Of a stretch of 55,096 nt of DNA, positions 5,419 to 51,765 are shown one piece after another. Within the stretch, counting starts at the first letter, position 1. Every line of letters begins with the position of its first letter. A model generated the notes under the pieces. It saw nothing but the letters and a program-made list of their open reading frames with translations, was not told where the DNA came from and did not search any database. The DNA is from a virus (Duplodnaviria; Caudoviricetes). A program made the translations under genes and the position numbers. The DNA lies in IMG/VR virus record IMGVR_UViG_3300029267_003206, positions 1 to 55,096 of that record; one strand, written 5' to 3'.

Positions 5419-5767
5419 GGAAGAGGGTGATAATAAAAGCATCTCTCTTCCCACAACTCCCCTTCTATCTAAGTTAAAGGAAAAGAAGATGCAGAAGGCA
5501 AAAGAAAAATCATCCTCTGTTCTTGAAAATGCACGGAAGAGAAGAAAGAAGTCAGCCAAGATCCAGAATCTTGCTCCACATATAGACTTTCTGCCAATGG
5601 AAAGTGGGATTATCATTTCCAAATTAGATTACATTCTCACTGAGGAGGTGGAGGATGCCTATGTCTTTGAGAAGACGAAGTTAGCTAAACAGAAGAAGGT
5701 GGAGAATGCTAAATATAATATAAAAAATCGCATTAAATCAAAGTTACAGACAAAAATAGGAGAGTAA
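5387..5767 (+). CDS. Basic hypothetical protein
   Basis: GGGGGTGA RBS before ATG 5387; Lys-rich. Confidence 0.65.
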   Translation: MAKDLTQIQTEEEGDNKSISLPTTPLLSKLKEKKMQKAKEKSSSVLENARKRRKKSAKIQNLAPHIDFLPMESGIIISKLDYILTEEVEDAYVFEKTKLAKQKKVENAKYNIKNRIKSKLQTKIGE

Positions 5768-6650: not shown

Positions 6651-7326
6651 ATTATCATACCCTAAAGAAATAGATGTAGCACCAGCCTTATTAGAAAGGT
6701 ATTCTCAAATGCCTCTTCGAATGGAGATCGTTCCAGAGCCAGCATGGTATTTTAACCTTCGAAAGATGTTTACTGCCACAACCTGGGGATTAGTTCGGAA
6801 TAGAGCGTATGGGCGATATTGGTATACCTGTCCATTTTGCAGAAAAGAACATTGGAATCTTGAGAAAGAAGAACAAGATATTCTAAAACCTGTTGGGGGT
6901 GGACTTCATGCTCATGAAATATGGTCTTACGATGATGAAACACATACTCAGAGATGTGATGGAATAGTAGCTCTCTGCCCTACTTGTCACTCTATCAAGC
7001 ATATGGTTCTCACACAGAAGAGGGCACAAGAAGGTGCTGTGAAGATGTCAGAAGTTATTTCACACTTCTGCACAGTTAATCAATGCTTACAACAAGACTT
7101 TGAAGATATTCTAGAATTTGAGATGCAAGTTTTTCATTTCAGAGGGAAGTTCAAATGGACTTGTGATATTCAAGATTACATGGAATATGTTGGACCTAAA
7201 GCAGCTCCGTTTATAGCCTCTGAGATGCTTGTTGGTAATCTGGAATTGTTACCGACAAAAGTTCTAAATGAAGTTGCAAAGTGTCTGGAAGAGATCGAAG
7301 CAGGAACATTTAAACTGCCGGAATAA
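6640..7326 (+). CDS. HNH-like nuclease
   Basis: CPFC...LHAHEIW.YD...ALCPTCHSIKH. Confidence 0.8.
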   Translation: MFNELSYPKEIDVAPALLERYSQMPLRMEIVPEPAWYFNLRKMFTATTWGLVRNRAYGRYWYTCPFCRKEHWNLEKEEQDILKPVGGGLHAHEIWSYDDETHTQRCDGIVALCPTCHSIKHMVLTQKRAQEGAVKMSEVISHFCTVNQCLQQDFEDILEFEMQVFHFRGKFKWTCDIQDYMEYVGPKAAPFIASEMLVGNLELLPTKVLNEVAKCLEEIEAGTFKLPE

Positions 7327-33267: not shown

Positions 33268-36200
33268 TCAATTATTAAGTTGCCTGGGGGTAATACCAGA
33301 TGGGAAAACTTTACAGCTATCTCCCTGGCAGGCTTTTAGAATTTGAGATGATTCAACGGCTGGACTATGACATATAGCAACACCTGTATATGCCATCCAC
33401 ATAGCCATTTGACTGCTGTCTAATTCATGAGCTACCTCTGCTGACGTTTGAAATGTGCCATCTAAGATAGCTTTAATACCATCTTCATCTGTTACAATAC
33501 CTTGAAATTTCGATGCTCCTTTATGCACCTTATTGTCTTCCTTACATGTCCACTCTAAATCATCATCCCATTCTACCTTTGTCATGATTCCTATTCTGCT
33601 TACTTCTTTATTATCATGGAAGTAGTTGATATAAGCCAGATTGGTTCCACGATGCCAAGGTTCCAATTGTGCTTTCTTAACAGATGATCTTGGATATATC
33701 TTCCCTTTAAATCGCCCCTCTCGGAAGAGAAGTCCTTCTACCTCCAAATATCCCTCATTGTTTATGTGTGTCTGAGTGATGCTAAAATCTTCGTGACCTA
33801 CGTCAAAAATCTCCTTCTTTGCTCCCGGAATAATCTTCCAGAAACCAACATCACCTTTCACCCTGAAAACATTTTTCACCCGTTCACCTTCCACCTTAAT
33901 TTCCATATAGTCTCCATCAATATTCTCTATAACAGCGATTCCTTCATCAAGAAGTTCTATCTGAGACAGTAAGGATTTAGACTGATTGAGGGTGTGTCCG
34001 GGAGGCAGATACCCATCAACCTGGGCTAATTTAGGGCTTCTAAGTGCCAACGAAGAGAATGTTTCTCGAAGTAGAGGATTCGATTCACATGTAAATGAGA
34101 ATGTCTGCCCCCCAAACACGAAGTTAAGATGCCATTGTTCTCTATTCTCTGTGCTGATCCCCTTGAAAATCTGATGCTGTAGAGAGAAATAAGAATCATG
34201 TGGGTTCTCAAGATGCTTAGGTAATTCCATCTCTACACCAGGTAATCTTTCATTCAGATCATTTCGGAAAGCAGACCTAATTTCTCGTCTGTTCTTCCCA
34301 GAATCTTTCTTCCAGTATTTATAATAGGAAGGTGTAAAGTTTACAACATGTCGTGGCAGACCCGTATAACCAATTGGAGGCATCCAGCTTTCATTATCTG
34401 CCTGACGAGTTAAGACAAATGGTAATCTGTTGGCTTTATATATATACCAACTGCCATTGTAATTCTTTTCCGAATACATCTTCTTGAGAACTGAACCATG
34501 ATACCAGAATTCTCTATAACCATCCTTAATGGTTAAGCATTCATATTCACCTCTGTCTAAATTTATGACATAAGCATCCCCTACCCACCCTTCTTTATCC
34601 CACCTCTTAAAGTCTCGATGGACAAAAGGTTCTGCTATGAATTTATAAGTTGGATTCTGCAAGTCTTTCTTTAACTCTGGCCAGACCTCTTTTGTGAACA
34701 TCTGCTTTACAGTAGAGAAACCTGTTTTGTTGGTGGAAAGTGTATAACAGGCAGGTTCTGTATATCCATCCATCTTCACACTACCTTTATACAATCGCAT
34801 ACAGGTATCTATTCCTTTTGTCAGTTGGCGGCGTAAGAAAAGAGATACCTTATCACCAGACACATAGGCTTGAAGAAGGAATTTGGCAGTTCCAATCTGA
34901 GGCCATTCAGAATGGTAATCCAGGTTGGTGTATATATCAGAACCTACATCTATAAGTTGAAGGAAGTTACCATCAGTTCTATATTCAACCTTATCTAATC
35001 CTTCATCTTCATTAGTCATCAAGAAGATAAATTCCGCTTCTTGCACTGAATTATCCTTTTTTGGGAAATTAATGTATTTATATGATACTCTGGTAGCCCT
35101 GACATGTGTGAAATACTTTCCAAACATCTCCATCAATTTCTTTTTGGGGAAGAGTTTAGATTCTCGATATGAGAAGAGAACATAGTTAAACTTTGTAGAT
35201 ACTTCTAAAAGCTCATTGATTCTCTGTTCAAATGTTTCCTTCGTCCACTCCCCTCCAAGGTTGAGTCCCTCATATGATCCAAAGAGAGCATGTTCCCAGG
35301 CATTATATTGTTTATAATAAGTCTTCGTGCTTCCTGTCTCAGATATATAAGGCGGATCAAAGTATGCTAAAGATTTAGATGGTAAATTTGATATATGCTT
35401 GAGGAAAGATATAGAATCAGATCGGACAAAATGTGCTTTCCCACCATCCCCACTCACATGACCATTGAATTTCTTAAGGCAGGTGGAAAGCCCCTGCTTT
35501 AAGAGCTTCAGCATTGAGATGCGATCTCTCTTCATCCTTTCCCATACTTTCTTGTGGATGCTATCTCTAAGATACCCAGCATACACCATAGTACCAGCTG
35601 AAGCAAGGAGTGAAGCTTTTGCCAGACTCCTCTTAGGTTCTGGCAATGAATCTGCTCTGCTTCTAAACCCATCCATAAACTTCTTGCAGGCAGTGTCGAA
35701 GTGAATGGCTTTGTCTTTTAAAGTTGTCATATATCCTCTCTGTGGAGGGGATGCAAGAAGCCAGTCAATTTCATCATCACTCAATTGGGTATCTTTATTC
35801 TTTACGATGCTATCATAGATAACCTGACTAATTTTGGAAGTATCCACCCCAACAACATTTAGACCTAACTTCCTCAGTGTGTATGACACTACGCCACAAC
35901 CTGAAAACCCATCCACGATGAATTGGACATCCTTTGGGATCTGTCTGACAATTTGTTCCATCAGTTTTCGTTTGGAACCTATATACGCTATAGGGTATGA
36001 CGTGAAGTCTTCCTGATCTGTTATCTGATAATTGGAATATGGAAAAGGGAAATCCAGGCCAGCCTTCCTCCTCTGCTGAGATATTATAATCGCTTGATGC
36101 ATTTTCTTTGCTTCTGCTTCGGTAGGGAAACATTTTATGATAGTTCCTTCTGGAGCATCTTTTGGGCCACCGGTGTCAGGATGCCCATGAACAACACACC

Positions 36201-37257
36201 ATTTGTCACCACGCTTCTCAACCCGCATGTCTGCCACGTTAACAACCATCCGCCCAACACCAGGTCTATTTATATTTCTCATCTGACTTCCACATTTGGG
36301 ACATGTGTAATCTTCACAATGAACAGGTGATGTCATCTGATACCCACAACTCAGACATTCACAGGTATACTCAATCGATGCAGAAAATTGAGGGTAATCT
36401 GGATTAGTCCTTCGTCTTCCAGGTATAATAGTATCTGGTCTTCCAATTCCAGGTCTTTCTTCTCTTCTCATCTGTCCCCCACATTTAGGGCATTTCAAGT
36501 CTTCACAATGACTTTCGCTTACCATCTGATACCCACATTTGATACATGCACAGGCGATACCAAAATCAATCGTATCTGCGAAGTTCTCATATTCTGAGAA
36601 GAGGTTTTTCTTTTTCAGCTCTGCCAGAACTTTCTCCAAAAATAGTTTCTTCTGGCCAGTGTAGTCTTCCAAGGTCAATGAAATCCCACGCTTTAAAATT
36701 TCTCGTAGAACAATCTGCCCAATACCATTATAATCTTTATCTGGTGATTCTACAGTCTTTTGACATATAATCTTCCAGTCATCCTCAAGTTGTATGTTAT
36801 CAAGAAGACGTGGATCATAATCATCCATAGATGTTACTAACTCGATGGATGGGTGTGGGTCAGAGAAAGACTTGAGGTCAAAAAATTCATCATCTCCCCC
36901 AACCGCATTTATAAACACATTCTGCTTGAAGGATCGGAAACGGAAAACAAGGCCAAAGGCAGGCCACTTATCAAACTCTGACCCTCCAATTTTCTGCTCC
37001 CACTGGCTCAATGTTAGTTTATGCATGTCTGCTAATTCTTCGAACATATACTCATCATCGATGGGCAGGATCTTATAGATATATATGGTCCCAGGAGATG
37101 CTACATGTTGAACATCTTTATAATCTGGATATACGATGAAATCAGTCTGCATAAGTTTATCGAATTCAACGTTATGGCAGATGCGGAGTAACATACCCAA
37201 AGTCTCTTCTTTAACCCCAGCTACTTCCTCAATGGACATCCTAATTGCTCTCATCAT
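33268..37257 (-). CDS. Multidomain prohead protease polyprotein: two Zn-ribbon repeats, D12-class N6-adenine DNA methyltransferase, two degenerate LigD-PE-like domains, C-terminal capsid maturation protease
   Basis: Between portal and scaffold; MTase motifs YIGSKRKL, DGFSGCG and YFDPPY; CPKCG.QMR...RPG.GR twice; protease-like LEVEG...NYFH...RIG...TSAEV...GVAICHSPA. Confidence 0.8.
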   Translation of the reverse strand: MMRAIRMSIEEVAGVKEETLGMLLRICHNVEFDKLMQTDFIVYPDYKDVQHVASPGTIYIYKILPIDDEYMFEELADMHKLTLSQWEQKIGGSEFDKWPAFGLVFRFRSFKQNVFINAVGGDDEFFDLKSFSDPHPSIELVTSMDDYDPRLLDNIQLEDDWKIICQKTVESPDKDYNGIGQIVLREILKRGISLTLEDYTGQKKLFLEKVLAELKKKNLFSEYENFADTIDFGIACACIKCGYQMVSESHCEDLKCPKCGGQMRREERPGIGRPDTIIPGRRRTNPDYPQFSASIEYTCECLSCGYQMTSPVHCEDYTCPKCGSQMRNINRPGVGRMVVNVADMRVEKRGDKWCVVHGHPDTGGPKDAPEGTIIKCFPTEAEAKKMHQAIIISQQRRKAGLDFPFPYSNYQITDQEDFTSYPIAYIGSKRKLMEQIVRQIPKDVQFIVDGFSGCGVVSYTLRKLGLNVVGVDTSKISQVIYDSIVKNKDTQLSDDEIDWLLASPPQRGYMTTLKDKAIHFDTACKKFMDGFRSRADSLPEPKRSLAKASLLASAGTMVYAGYLRDSIHKKVWERMKRDRISMLKLLKQGLSTCLKKFNGHVSGDGGKAHFVRSDSISFLKHISNLPSKSLAYFDPPYISETGSTKTYYKQYNAWEHALFGSYEGLNLGGEWTKETFEQRINELLEVSTKFNYVLFSYRESKLFPKKKLMEMFGKYFTHVRATRVSYKYINFPKKDNSVQEAEFIFLMTNEDEGLDKVEYRTDGNFLQLIDVGSDIYTNLDYHSEWPQIGTAKFLLQAYVSGDKVSLFLRRQLTKGIDTCMRLYKGSVKMDGYTEPACYTLSTNKTGFSTVKQMFTKEVWPELKKDLQNPTYKFIAEPFVHRDFKRWDKEGWVGDAYVINLDRGEYECLTIKDGYREFWYHGSVLKKMYSEKNYNGSWYIYKANRLPFVLTRQADNESWMPPIGYTGLPRHVVNFTPSYYKYWKKDSGKNRREIRSAFRNDLNERLPGVEMELPKHLENPHDSYFSLQHQIFKGISTENREQWHLNFVFGGQTFSFTCESNPLLRETFSSLALRSPKLAQVDGYLPPGHTLNQSKSLLSQIELLDEGIAVIENIDGDYMEIKVEGERVKNVFRVKGDVGFWKIIPGAKKEIFDVGHEDFSITQTHINNEGYLEVEGLLFREGRFKGKIYPRSSVKKAQLEPWHRGTNLAYINYFHDNKEVSRIGIMTKVEWDDDLEWTCKEDNKVHKGASKFQGIVTDEDGIKAILDGTFQTSAEVAHELDSSQMAMWMAYTGVAICHSPAVESSQILKACQGDSCKVFPSGITPRQLNN

Positions 37258-41306: not shown

Positions 41307-41330
41307 CCTATATATACATATTGATATAAG
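41307..41330 (-). promoter_or_regulatory. TATA-like promoter for the packaging operon (probably leaderless transcript)
   Basis: Minus strand tatgtatatatagg about 25 nt before the ATG; no SD sequence. Confidence 0.45.
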
Positions 41331-41847
41331 TCTTTGAAGAATAGTATATGGTGTAGCAGAGGGCGGATCAGGGGGCTATTTTGGGGCACAAAGGTATATA
41401 GTTAGTTATATGTCTGTTTCCTTTTGACCTTCTTAGATACCTCAGCCCCCCTATGTAGTATATATAGTTTTCCCTATATTCCTTCAAATTGGGTCCGATT
41501 TGATTTTTCTCTGGCAGATTGTAGTATTCTTAGAGAGGAATATAAGGTGTTTCAGCATATTCACGTAGATTAACGCCGTTAATATAGATAAGTATATATA
41601 GAAGGAGAGAGATGAAGAGGGGCCTTACGCATCTGAAACAAGGAAAAGGAAACAGATGGTTATACGGTTATATACCTTTGTGCCCTATCTAAACTTTTCC
41701 GATCCATCTGCTCCGAAATTTTTTCCCATTTCTGCTTATTTACGTATCTGTTCTGATAGAAAGTAAACCCAGAATCCTTTGATTTTGCGAGTGTATACAG
41801 GTTGATATATAATAAAGGTGTATGCGTAACATTATCTATTCGTTTAC

Positions 41848-42000
41848 TTAACTCTGCTAACTCTGTAAACATCCTCACGTAACTCTATTTACTCTGTTAA
41901 CTACTATACACCATACAATACTGTAGAGTCTACAATACTTAGTAATACTAAGTGGTTAGCATCTCTAAGGCATTAGCATACCTAAGAGGTTAGCATAACC
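41848..42000. repeat. Iteron-like short repeats and palindromes (candidate origin or pac region)
   Basis: 9-nt-period T(A/T)ACTCT units; palindromes tgtaga-g-tctaca and acttagta-a-tactaagt; ttagcat three times. Confidence 0.5.
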
Positions 42001-42045
42001 AAATTTGTCATACTCATTACAAAAATATGGTCAATTCCACTTGAC

Positions 42046-42062
42046 CACAACATTTATATACT
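42046..42062 (+). promoter_or_regulatory. Archaeal TATA promoter P1
   Basis: TTTATATA at 42053-42060, about 22 nt before the GC-rich structured region. Confidence 0.7.
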
Positions 42063-42081
42063 TAAAACCCCTACTCATATT

Positions 42082-42465
42082 GCCGGTGGCCCATCCGGGC
42101 GGGCGGGCTTCGAGCCTTCCCCCGGAACCCACCTAAGGCCAGACGAAAGTCTCAGCAGAGAAGTCCAAGGCGGACTAAAGCCAAAACCTGAACGGCATAC
42201 CGAAGGTGTGAGAGTTCGAAGGTGCTAAGTGCTAACAAGGCATCTTTTAACCGTAGCATCCAATCGTTCCAGTATGCCAGATGGAGGGAAGCAACCCCAT
42301 TGTAGCGGATGGGTTTACCTTACGCAAGATGTCAGAGGTGGCATAATAAGAATACCTAAGCTCAGCGACAGCAGATATATTGCTCTGTCTGCCAAAGTTG
42401 TTCCTTTCGGGGGAAGTGCTCTGTAATTGAGCATACAATTGAATGGGCATTTCCCCCATTTTTTT
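42082..42465 (+). ncRNA. Large structured non-coding RNA of unknown class (about 380 nt)
   Basis: Own TATA box and 3' U7 tract; GC-rich hairpins with GAAA and UUCG loops; nested long-range helices. Confidence 0.65.
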
Positions 42466-42550
42466 CTATTCAACATTAACAGGCAGATTCAGGCCGGTGC
42501 ATTACACTTGTAAGTCCTGATTCTGTCTGGTGTATGAAAGGAGGAATGAT

Positions 42551-42706
42551 ATGCAAGTGATTGTTAAGATTAGCAGACACGAAGAGATTCATATGACGAA
42601 GGTTAAGTCTATAAGGAATCTTGGCGGATTGTTCAGACTCATAACGAAAGAAGATGAAGAGTTATTTCTCAAGCCTAATACTCTTATGGCCATCGAGGAT
42701 GATTGA
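42551..42706 (+). CDS. Small hypothetical protein (51 aa, not in track)
   Basis: AAGGAGG RBS; MQVIVKISRHEE... Confidence 0.6.
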   Translation: MQVIVKISRHEEIHMTKVKSIRNLGGLFRLITKEDEELFLKPNTLMAIEDD

Positions 42707-43192: not shown

Positions 43193-43208
43193 CGAAACCT
43201 TTATATAC
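43193..43208 (+). promoter_or_regulatory. Archaeal BRE+TATA promoter P2
   Basis: cgaaaccTTTATATAc. Confidence 0.7.
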
Positions 43209-43272: not shown

Positions 43273-43806
43273 ATGCCAACACTTGCAGACAAAATATCGG
43301 CCATTAAGAAGGCTAGAGCAGAGTCAGCCACCACGCCTGGGAAGAGTGGGAAATTACCAAAGAAGCGAAAGGGGAAGAGGTTAATTCCTCTTTTCAAGGA
43401 GTATTCAGACTACGTTCCCTCTGAAGCACCGTCATTAAGAGGGAGTTGCGAAGACTTCTTGAGAACCTTCAGCCCTGAGATGTCGATGACCCAACAGATG
43501 GTCTTCGATGGGAAGGCTAAGCATTTCGAAGGTTCAACTTCACTCATCGTGAAGACCCTAACAGACCTTTATGAATCAGGTCTACTTTTCCCCAACTGGC
43601 CCAAGAAGGCCACGATCCCCCCTATAGCATATTATATGCTAACAGCATCCCTGAAGTGGGATGAGAAGGTTGAGAAAGAGATTCTTCCAGACCTTCTTGA
43701 ACTGGGTATCTCATTTGAGAAGATAGAAAGACCTGTCTTCGAGAAGCCCCCAGTTGCAGGGGAAGCAGAGGAAGCAGAACCAGATGAAGATGAAGATGAA
43801 GAGTAA
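43273..43806 (+). CDS. Early protein A (basic N-terminal helix, acidic tail)
   Basis: TAAGGAGG RBS; first gene after P2; N-terminus resembles 48324..48623. Confidence 0.8.
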   Translation: MPTLADKISAIKKARAESATTPGKSGKLPKKRKGKRLIPLFKEYSDYVPSEAPSLRGSCEDFLRTFSPEMSMTQQMVFDGKAKHFEGSTSLIVKTLTDLYESGLLFPNWPKKATIPPIAYYMLTASLKWDEKVEKEILPDLLELGISFEKIERPVFEKPPVAGEAEEAEPDEDEDEE

Positions 43807-44867: not shown

Positions 44868-45306
44868 AGGAGTGGACGGGATGATAAAAATTCTAACTGC
44901 TATAGCATCCAAAGAATCTTTATCATGTTTAGATGATGAACCCGTAGTATTTGGGCCGGATTGTGGATGTTCAGAATGTGAGTGTGGATGTAGAAATAGG
45001 ATGGTGGGCCTGAAAACATACCACAATTCCACACTATTCAAAGTCCAAGAAGTTGATATCACTTGCTCATACTATGAGAAGCAGATATTTGATTACCTCT
45101 GCTACATAGGAATGAATGAAATAACAACACTAACAGAGATATCATCCTTAGCTCATAAGATGGCAGATGATATATTCTACATCACGAACCAAATGCAAAT
45201 TGGAGACATTGTAGAGAGAGAAGATGAAGTCTTCACAGTCATACGGAATACTAAAGCAGATATTAGAGAGCGATTAAAGTTAAAGCTCTCTGGGGGGAAA
45301 GGATAA
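44848..45306 (+). CDS. Cys-containing hypothetical protein (start probably 44881)
   Basis: CGCSECECGC; operon position. Confidence 0.6.
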   Translation: MEGGLYEGVDGMIKILTAIASKESLSCLDDEPVVFGPDCGCSECECGCRNRMVGLKTYHNSTLFKVQEVDITCSYYEKQIFDYLCYIGMNEITTLTEISSLAHKMADDIFYITNQMQIGDIVEREDEVFTVIRNTKADIRERLKLKLSGGKG

Positions 45307-45324
45307 TGTTAATGATGCTAACCA

Positions 45325-45600
45325 TACTATATCCCATTGAGATGTTTATTTCTATGGGATGTAGTGATCCAAACAACTGTGTAGATGTGAATGAGAAATC
45401 TGTTCAACAAGCAGATGACCCAGGCATATCGTATGGGATTCCGTCTTCCAGACCACCGTAGGATTCCCCCTCTGCCAAATTGGTTAAGTCTAACCGTTAA
45501 AAGGTGGAGGGGGAATACTGAGGGAATCAAGCATACACAGTTGAGAATCAAGGGGGGCATCGCAAATGTCTATAAGAGATTATAGACACCAAAGCCCCCC
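45325..45600 (+). ncRNA. Multibranch structured ncRNA upstream of the tRNA-like gene
   Basis: 13-bp hairpin 45325-45366; 10-bp closing stem caactgtgta/tacacagttg (45374-45543) enclosing a 14-bp stem; ggggggc/gcccccc hairpin with tgtctataa-GAGA-ttatagaca. Confidence 0.65.
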
Positions 45601-45618
45601 ACCATCTTCTTTCACAAT

Positions 45619-45688
45619 AGCCGGATGGTATAATGGCAACGCATCCCCATTGGTGGGGAAGCTGATGGTTCAAATCCATCTCTGGCTA
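45619..45688 (+). tRNA. tRNA-like gene (Gln-like, aberrant anticodon loop; no CCA encoded)
   Basis: Acceptor AGCCGGA/TCTGGCT plus A; D-loop AATGG; T-arm GATGG-TTCAAAT-CCATC; anticodon arm TCCCC-ATTGGT-GGGGA has a 6-nt loop. Confidence 0.7.
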
Positions 45689-45993
45689 CTATAAATAAAA
45701 TGGAGGCAAAACAATATGACGGCAAATGAAGAACAGGCAGAAAGAGAACATAGAGAACGGATGATTAGTGCACTTGGAAGCCTGATCCTCCAGTTGGAGG
45801 TAATACGAATGAATCTGCAGAAAAAGATAGATGCTTCTACAGATGCCCATACCAAAGAGGTAGATATAAATGAAAGCTAAAAAATCTAACTCCGGTAAAT
45901 CTGTTTACATCAATCAGATACACGGCTCACCATCTCCAGAATACATACTGCAAGAGAATATAGATGGTGTTATAGTCAGAGTGAAAGGGCGGT

Positions 45994-48636: not shown

Positions 48637-48843
48637 GGGGTTGGTAATCCACCGACCCCTATTTCATTTTGGGCCTTCCCGATGTGATAAACGATAAGAT
48701 GATTCATTTTACCACCCACATTGGGATGATGACTGAGTATGATTTTCATACACAACATCCCTGGTGTCAAAACCAGATGGCCCACATCCCCCTTATACAT
48801 TCTCTCCCCTAATAGCAACGGGCAGGTGTGATTGCACCTGCCC
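48637..48843 (+). ncRNA. Structured intergenic element (hairpin, four-way junction, hairpin)
   Basis: ggggttggt/accgacccc; tgggcc/ggccca enclosing tcccgatgtg/cacattggga, gtatga/tcatac and ctggt/accag; gggcaggtg/cacctgccc. Confidence 0.5.
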
Positions 48844-51737: not shown

Positions 51738-51765
51738 GGGGGGGAATCTTCCCCCCCTTTTATTT
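51738..51765 (+). terminator. Hairpin plus U-tract
   Basis: ggggggga-atct-tccccccc-tttt. Confidence 0.65.

Follow-up and report, generated by a model that had tools for sequence, protein, structure and literature searches.

The "6S" transcript of phage lambda, a late-operon RNA of about 194 nt, starts at the promoter PR' and ends at tR', which is read through upon Q antitermination. The put RNA of phage HK022 (~70 nt, two stem-loops) and EAR both mediate processive antitermination. The immunity RNAs of P4 (CI), P1 and P7 (C4), and N15 (CB), with C4 represented as an Rfam family, are 70 to 80 nt in length and pair with repeated target sites, and GOLLD, ROOL, and OLE are large RNAs of roughly 580 to 800 nt. 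Early-gene cassettes of archaeal viruses contain a TTTAWATA box with conserved surroundings and, in some viruses, inverted repeats taken as repressor sites; the cassettes precede fast-evolving early genes that the authors of the study in question regard as anti-defence (PMC11065993).

The locus compared with these systems lies in a window of 55,096 bases, i.e., the whole stretch of DNA analyzed, in which a structured non-coding RNA of ~384 to 385 nt was annotated at positions 42082 to 42465 (plus strand) based on its fold, covariation, and stop codons. Like the lambda "6S" RNA, it would be a short terminated transcript whose promoter also drives the downstream operon, with a strong intrinsic terminator near the promoter. 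It differs from the lambda RNA in length and in not belonging to a late operon; the lambda RNA is not known as a covarying multi-domain fold, and no Q-like protein or site was identified here. The likeness to put and EAR is that of a promoter-proximal structured RNA on an early transcript, ahead of a terminator, whereas the virus RNA measures 385 to 479 nt, contains many helices, has no sequence or model match to them, and is absent from a sister lineage with the same promoter. Similar to the P4, P1/P7, and N15 RNAs, it comes first in an early operon, on the strand that would also carry its targets, and would be linked to premature termination, but its complementarity to the leader and to the genome was at chance level and there was no Rfam match. 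With GOLLD, ROOL, and OLE (10.1101/2024.12.08.627333), it shares the character of a large, multi-domain, virus-linked RNA with whole helical domains inserted between variants; those RNAs are larger, however, and have Rfam models, none of which matched. The window shares the TTTAWATA box, conserved surrounding sequence, and an inverted repeat with the archaeal-virus cassettes (PMC11065993). In contrast to those cassettes, the product here is an RNA rather than a small protein, the terminators elsewhere in the early arm (G-rich hairpins followed by T-runs) look bacterial, and the host may be either bacterial or archaeal.

Virus, related copies, and non-coding status

The window spans an entire virus record, has terminal repeats of 48 bases and a G+C content of 40%, and corresponds to a complete tailed virus of 55 kb that derives from metagenomes of marine sediment or seawater. 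Four DNA runs labeled as sediment and seawater metagenomes contained the entire stretch, and none of the six runs listed for it was an RNA run. In four of these runs, DNA contigs identical to the window were found, as well as one 151-nt piece from upstream of the RNA. Genes for the large terminase, the major head protein, and tail-like proteins are among those in the minus-strand arm (11.6 to 41.3 kb), and the plus-strand arm from 42.5 kb onward contains mostly small genes without known function. The RNA element sits within a 1.2-kb divergent region that separates these two arms, next to the terminase operon. The structural arm also encodes a 1329-aa protein (33268 to 37257, minus strand) with a D12-class N6-adenine DNA methyltransferase domain and a DUF7129 zinc-ribbon-like match. 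Neither tblastn with the terminase and capsid nor the protein atlas, Pfam family controls, or genome contigs yielded a host assignment; a bacterial and an archaeal host are considered about equally probable.

Viral contigs were searched with the terminase protein and with a terminase alignment, each of which returned the same five loci. DNA-pattern searches of viral contigs recovered contigs that were already known and no further homologs, and genome-contig searches for more homologs recovered none. A single metagenome scan returned three stretches, namely, one already known, one from the L005 lineage (see below), and one chance match (L010). Only three distinct copies of the RNA were present in the collections searched: that in the window, one on contig L003 that is truncated by the contig end just before the 3' half of the terminator, and one of 479 nt on contig L004. 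Contigs excluded from the RNA comparison were L002, which stops before the RNA, L005 to L009, which contain no homolog, L010, and L011, which is the same contig as L004. Identities among the three copies were 72 to 79% over alignable columns, and L003 and L004 were identical to each other at both ends and 58 to 72% identical in the middle.

A first-pass annotation, made from the sequence alone, had described an abrupt GC-rich start at 42082 and no ORF with a credible ribosome-binding site; the rise in G+C content and the lack of a conserved ORF were confirmed. The G+C content was 0.34 to 0.39 upstream versus 0.49 to 0.55 over 42000 to 42299. The 65-aa (plus strand) and 70-aa (minus strand) frames of the window copy had no Pfam match, stops were present in all six frames of both L003 and L004, and no ORF was common to the variants; i.e., no reading frame was conserved. 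Gaps in the window-to-L003 alignment measured 1, 23, 1, 4, 3, 43, 16, and 20 nt. Coding under another genetic code was considered and rejected: one window frame contains only two stops, both TAA, but L003 and L004 contain many in every frame.

Membership in a known RNA family was defined as a score at or above the gathering threshold of an Rfam 15 family, including RNase P, tmRNA, SRP, 6S, group I and II introns, riboswitches, T-box, C4, GOLLD, ROOL, OLE, and HEARO. No family reached its threshold in a focused scan of 41850 to 42650, in which permissive filters returned four matches (E values of 2.8 to 6.6; 11 to 17 bits, versus thresholds of 38 to 75), in agreement with the first-pass remark that the element lacks the RNase P, SRP, and group I consensus. 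A whole-window scan at gathering thresholds also returned nothing, a result that is weak alone because the same scan overlooked a tRNA scoring 41 bits locally. Rfam searches of the whole of L003 and L004 returned only a tRNA and a weak MS2 hairpin, both elsewhere on the contigs. Neither the window copy nor the L004 copy had a blastn match among 50,697 phage records, and no description of the element was found in full-text literature searches. We regard it as a genuine structured RNA element, not catalogued before, that belongs to a rare lineage of marine viruses. It possibly represents a new RNA class, a designation based on three variants from one narrow viral lineage.

The tRNA gene noted above (45619 to 45689, plus strand) has an odd anticodon loop, for which ARAGORN gave no amino acid and a two-base anticodon; its score with the Rfam tRNA model was 41.1 bits, with three rather than four unshown loop positions. 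The tRNA of L004 (1544 to 1614) scored 61.5 bits. A second structured stretch, at 45300 to 45700 (plus strand), is located just upstream of this tRNA and had a minimum free energy (MFE) of -148 kcal/mol (z = -6.46; 0/100 shuffles), with several near-perfect long hairpins; only the tRNA part could be aligned with L004. This stretch may be palindromic at the DNA level, because both strands fold well in a window-wide scan. It showed no similarity to the RNA at 42082 to 42465.

Fold and covariation of the RNA

The plus strand of the element had an MFE of -139.1 kcal/mol (z = -4.21), and none of 100 shuffles folded as well, which was the comparison with shuffled controls proposed by the first-pass annotation. 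The minus strand of the same stretch had a z-score of -1.97 (2/100 shuffles). A separate shuffle set gave z-scores of -3.5 (window copy), -5.4 (L004), and -2.0 (L003, truncated at its 3' end), and plus-strand z-scores were better than those of the minus strand in all three variants.

Per-sequence partition functions and sub-domain folds revealed a common plan, which consists of a variable 5' hairpin, a pair of small hairpins (P2 and P3), the long hairpin formed by P5, P5b, P6, and P8, a multi-branch domain on the 3' side, and a long terminator hairpin. The variable 5' hairpin, P1 (42082 to 42139, plus strand), is 58 nt in length in the window, with pair probabilities of 0.85 to 0.99. It had been proposed in the first-pass annotation and was again predicted, but alone it folded with a z-score of -1.4 (15/200 shuffles), and L003 and L004 have a 15-nt hairpin in its place, with one compensatory column. 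The P3 hairpin (42162 to 42176, plus strand; 42162 to 42166 with 42172 to 42176), also proposed previously, is supported by covariation: its five pairs are present in all three variants, and three of the five columns have changed on both sides.

The long irregular hairpin (42194 to 42278, plus strand; z = -4.20, 0/200 shuffles) is composed of P5 (42194 to 42200 with 42272 to 42278), P5b (42201 to 42203 with 42264 to 42266), P6 (42205 to 42209 with 42256 to 42260), and P8 (42218 to 42226 with 42239 to 42247). Its basal part (P5-P5b-P6) has six strands, and the intervening unpaired stretches measure 0, 1, about 46, 3, and 5 nt in each of the three variants. Of the seven P5 pairs, a single one keeps its letters and the other six differ on both sides, as do two of the three pairs in P5b; the changes in P6 are one sided (G-U to A-U and U-G to C-G). 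The dot-bracket layouts of the long hairpin agree between the window and L004. In L003, the MFE structure folds this region differently, and P5 has a C-A mismatch. The 3' multi-branch domain (42283 to 42408, plus strand) is predicted to consist of Pa (42283 to 42295 with 42397 to 42408), which closes Pb (42296 to 42301 with 42308 to 42313), Pc (42317 to 42321 with 42335 to 42339), and Pd (42371 to 42377 with 42386 to 42392). Three of the six Pb columns are compensatory relative to L003, Pd is invariant, and Pa and Pc have competing alternatives. An additional three-way domain of ~100 nt is present in the 3' region of L003 and L004, and in L003 its minus strand (z = -3.08) folded better than its plus strand (z = -1.06).

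Compensatory substitutions keep the helices among homologs, as judged from three variants in an alignment fitted to the structure. When 14 helices comprising 75 pair columns were read by coordinates, 29 columns had changed on both sides and still paired, 5 had changed on one side, and 41 were invariant; the C-A in P5 of L003 was the single unpaired cell. Because the helices and registers were selected by eye and from the folds predicted for each sequence, the share of paired columns is to some extent built in. The weight of the covariation case lies in different letters that pair at equivalent places between conserved blocks. It rests on few independent events, because there are three variants in two clades and the ends of L003 and L004 are identical. 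The homolog and covariation analysis recommended in the first-pass annotation yielded compensatory changes in 29 of 75 columns, from three variants.

For the 15 pairs of the basal long hairpin, 44 of 45 cells were paired, with eight pairs changed on both sides and two on one side, a count that leans toward structure because the alignment was fitted to structure; in slid controls, with partners moved by one to three columns, 20 to 42% of cells were paired and zero or one pair had changed on both sides. A covariance model with these 15 pairs was built from the window and L003 only. With default filters, the model did not find L004; with filters off, its top match in L004 was at the expected place (5586 to 5682, minus strand; 16.9 bits, E = 0.0052) with 15 of 15 pairs, and the same match had an E value of 0.032 over 71 kb, the E values of this model being rough. 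A scan based on geometry only (15 canonical pairs, fixed basal loop sizes, and an interior of 30 to 60 nt) identified one site in L004 (22.9 kb, both strands), which was the same as the covariance-model match. Across ~184 kb of both strands from four sources, the geometry scan found three other sites, which are chance sites, and the odds of a chance site within the 479-nt element on the right strand were about 0.01. RNAalifold on sequence-only MAFFT alignments reported compensatory pairs at 2/10, 4/13, and 1/4, in different helices and out of register. One helix from the first-pass annotation, between 42252 to 42256 and 42320 to 42324, can form in all three variants, with its 5' strand placed differently in L004 (by eye); judging from the sequences, it may be a tertiary contact.

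Roughly half of the helices listed in the first-pass annotation, along with its pseudoknot, are contradicted by the covarying pairings. Bases of the two-part helix set around 42186 to 42223 and of the nested set around 42239 to 42333 pair otherwise in P5, P5b, P6, and P8, and the segment proposed to pair with 42339 in the pseudoknot (42273 to 42279) forms the 3' side of P5; in L004, this strand and the one it pairs with are both fully replaced. These earlier pairings are unsupported because covariation-supported helices use the same bases.

Absence of function, with the element being a G+C-rich remnant (such as a gene in decay or an inserted sequence) that folds as a consequence of its base composition, is very unlikely. 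Regression of a window-wide MFE scan on G+C content placed the RNA stretch only 1.3 standard deviations below the trend, with other places more extreme, and such a remnant would also be consistent with the narrow distribution, the middle parts that are mosaic between L003 and L004, and the window-copy frame with only two stops. However, dinucleotide shuffles already control for composition, 74 of the 75 pair columns are intact in every variant (the remaining column has a single unpaired cell), and the loop geometry is identical although the letters of P5 are replaced save for one pair.

It is similarly improbable, and in our view highly unlikely, that the hairpins act as DNA, for instance, as a replication origin, packaging site, or recombination hot spot. 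The position in the divergent region next to the terminase operon, with repeated motifs, is what would be expected of such a site, and the other strongly folding stretches in the window-wide scan fold equally well on both strands. By contrast, the supported helices of the RNA hold four to five G-U pairs per variant, and the one-sided G-U and U-G changes in P6 would be mismatches on the other strand. These pairs and changes, together with the better plus-strand z-scores in all three variants, point to the plus strand as the RNA. The stretch also starts behind a promoter and finishes in a terminator, each oriented along the plus strand, which likewise argues against a DNA-level element.

Promoter, terminator, and the sister lineage

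Upstream of the RNA, three copies of a short motif with 17-nt spacing (at 41956, 41973, and 41990, within 41956 to 42006) form a block that can be aligned with L003 and L004; these are possibly regulator sites. The adjacent block (42005 to 42047) is nearly invariant in the window, L003, L004, and L005 and contains a perfect palindrome (42028 to 42047; 7 nt, a 6-nt spacer, and 7 nt), which is likely an operator. A 23-nt pattern with 21 specified bases from this block matched only these lineages and one chance site. The triple motif and palindrome lie between a 72-aa minus-strand ORF (41660 to 41878), which is weakly conserved in L002 to L004, and the early promoter, a layout like that of a genetic switch with operators.

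The promoter core (42051 to 42064, plus strand) contains TTTATATA at 42053 to 42060, as the first-pass annotation had noted, and L005 has TTTAAATA at the same place. The 14-nt promoter motif occurs six times in the window at ≤2 mismatches (0.76 expected; 0 of 100 shuffles reached six), and the sites stand ahead of genes. One copy is at 43198, ahead of a conserved gene at 43273; further copies of the core are at 41589 to 41602 (minus strand), pointing toward the terminase operon, and at 41307 to 41320 (plus strand). A conserved TATTG (42078 to 42082, plus strand) follows the TATA-like box by 18 to 22 nt; its spacing is constant among the window, L003, L004, and L005, and it is kept across lineages despite differing downstream sequence. 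The 5' end of the RNA is presumed to be at or near 42082. No consistent -35 element was found in the contexts of the promoter motif, and sigma-70-like sites were not enriched (67 versus 65.6 and 48 versus 53.5). An archaeal-type promoter (BRE/TATA/Inr) was defined by a TTTAWATA box that precedes the start by ~23 nt and is itself preceded by a purine-rich element. Both the window and L005 contain an exact match to the box, with an unvarying 22 to 23 nt to TATTG. By analogy, the exact box, this fixed distance, and the near-leaderless first ORF of L005 would fit an archaeal-type promoter of the kind described for archaeal viruses (PMC11065993), whereas the G-rich hairpin and T-run terminators of the early arm look bacterial.

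The terminator (42409 to 42465, plus strand) is predicted to be intrinsic, with a G+C-rich 13-bp stem (42409 to 42421 with 42445 to 42457) enclosing an inner hairpin and directly followed by at least five U's, in this case the U7 at 42459 to 42465. The T-run after a hairpin agrees with the 3' end described in the first-pass annotation. Its three small 3' hairpins stand as elements of the terminator but are alternatives to one long terminator hairpin. This long hairpin (-28 kcal/mol; z = -4.97, 0/200 shuffles) has one compensatory stem column and a conserved 72-nt counterpart in L004 (z = -3.04, 2/200 shuffles). Within the early arm, further G-rich hairpins with T-runs directly follow genes at 48637 to 48659 and 51738 to 51757 (plus strand), which suggests several separate transcription units.

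A sister lineage (L005, L006, and L009), whose terminase is 59% identical, keeps the upstream block, the palindrome, the TTTAAATA box, and TATTG. In place of the RNA, an ORF of 76 aa without a Shine-Dalgarno sequence starts ~12 nt further on; in L005, this first early gene is at 6848 to 7075 (minus strand), and its product has no homolog in the window. The L005 protein is seemingly rich in charged residues and helix forming, and it may be a small regulator. L005 was rejected as a fourth variant of the RNA, given its 76-aa ORF, a folding z-score of +0.17, and no blast similarity past the promoter. All lineages share the genes from 43273 onward but not the ORFs that separate those genes from the promoter, so the locus consists of a conserved early promoter with a hypervariable slot behind it. 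Because L005 has the same promoter with the 76-aa ORF, the RNA is an accessory occupant of this variable first early slot.

Behind the terminator, a further hairpin (42469 to 42538, plus strand; z = -3.85, 1/200 shuffles) lies ahead of the first ribosome-binding site and may or may not be part of the RNA; its L004 counterpart differs in sequence (z = -1.48, 17/200 shuffles). ORFs with strong ribosome-binding sites begin 86 nt past the terminator, the first at 42551 to 42706 (plus strand; 51 aa, strong Shine-Dalgarno sequence). Among 5.8 billion proteins, the 51-aa ORF had no homolog but itself; it also had none in the related loci and no Pfam match. Pairing of the RNA with the downstream leader was at chance level (25/200 and 145/200 shuffles as good), and for antisense targets in the rest of the genome, the longest match was 12 nt, which was the mode of the shuffles.

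The main alternative, serious though somewhat unlikely, is that the RNA acts in cis on the early operon, as a leader or attenuator. It would sense a factor or modify polymerase in a put-like manner and so set whether transcription continues beyond the terminator into the early ORFs, and the terminated RNA would be a by-product. The same promoter drives ORFs directly in L005 and is thus an early-operon promoter. This alternative stays strong because the interval from 42466 to 42550 contains no recurrent promoter-motif copy and no sigma-70-like site ahead of the first ORF, structure extends to its ribosome-binding site, and the 5' strand of the terminator stem (42409 to 42421), along with the segment just upstream, has competing partners in Pa, a local hairpin, and the long terminator, as judged from predictions and sequence. 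A riboswitch or attenuator was defined by conserved, mutually exclusive terminator and antiterminator pairings with a regulated downstream gene; candidate alternative pairings were present in the predictions for the three variants, and the ORFs behind the element lack conservation. The Rfam scan gave no match to a riboswitch, T-box, or any other leader family. A core regulatory leader would also be expected in L005, yet the RNA is absent there, and a separate copy of the promoter (43198) lies ahead of the first conserved gene (43273).

Proposed role and significance

A discrete early RNA that acts as RNA, with a terminator that also limits read-through, is favored because the sister lineage lacks the RNA, the ORFs behind it are not conserved, and the next conserved gene has its own promoter; we hold this reading tentatively, at a little short of an even chance. 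RNA polymerase would start at the conserved early promoter, with its TATA-like box, TATTG, and palindromic operator, and would mostly halt at the 13-bp hairpin and U7, which would free a discrete RNA of ~385 nt among the first products of infection. The RNA would most likely bind a host or viral factor in trans through conserved unpaired segments; candidates are the long hairpin's asymmetric loops and, on the 3' side, the invariant block around 42371 to 42405. The terminator would also restrict transcription into the small ORFs behind it, and the discrete-RNA and leader readings are not mutually exclusive.

Viruses usually place anti-host tools among the first transcripts of infection, and roles are known for few viral RNAs of this size. 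A broader proposal, which we consider doubtful, is that the element founds a new family of large (385 to 480 nt), modular, early viral RNAs, located where relatives encode small early proteins, that would serve as effectors of host takeover or counter-defence, as a decoy or scaffold for a host factor, and maybe, in view of the TTTAWATA-type promoter, in an archaeal virus. So far, the element is one more unassigned structured RNA of a rare lineage, well supported as a fold. Viruses that are closely related, and that place either this RNA or a gene for a small early protein under one shared, regulated promoter, offer a natural comparison for the role of such RNAs. To our knowledge, few structured RNAs from archaeal viruses have been described, and if the host is an archaeon, the element would add to them.
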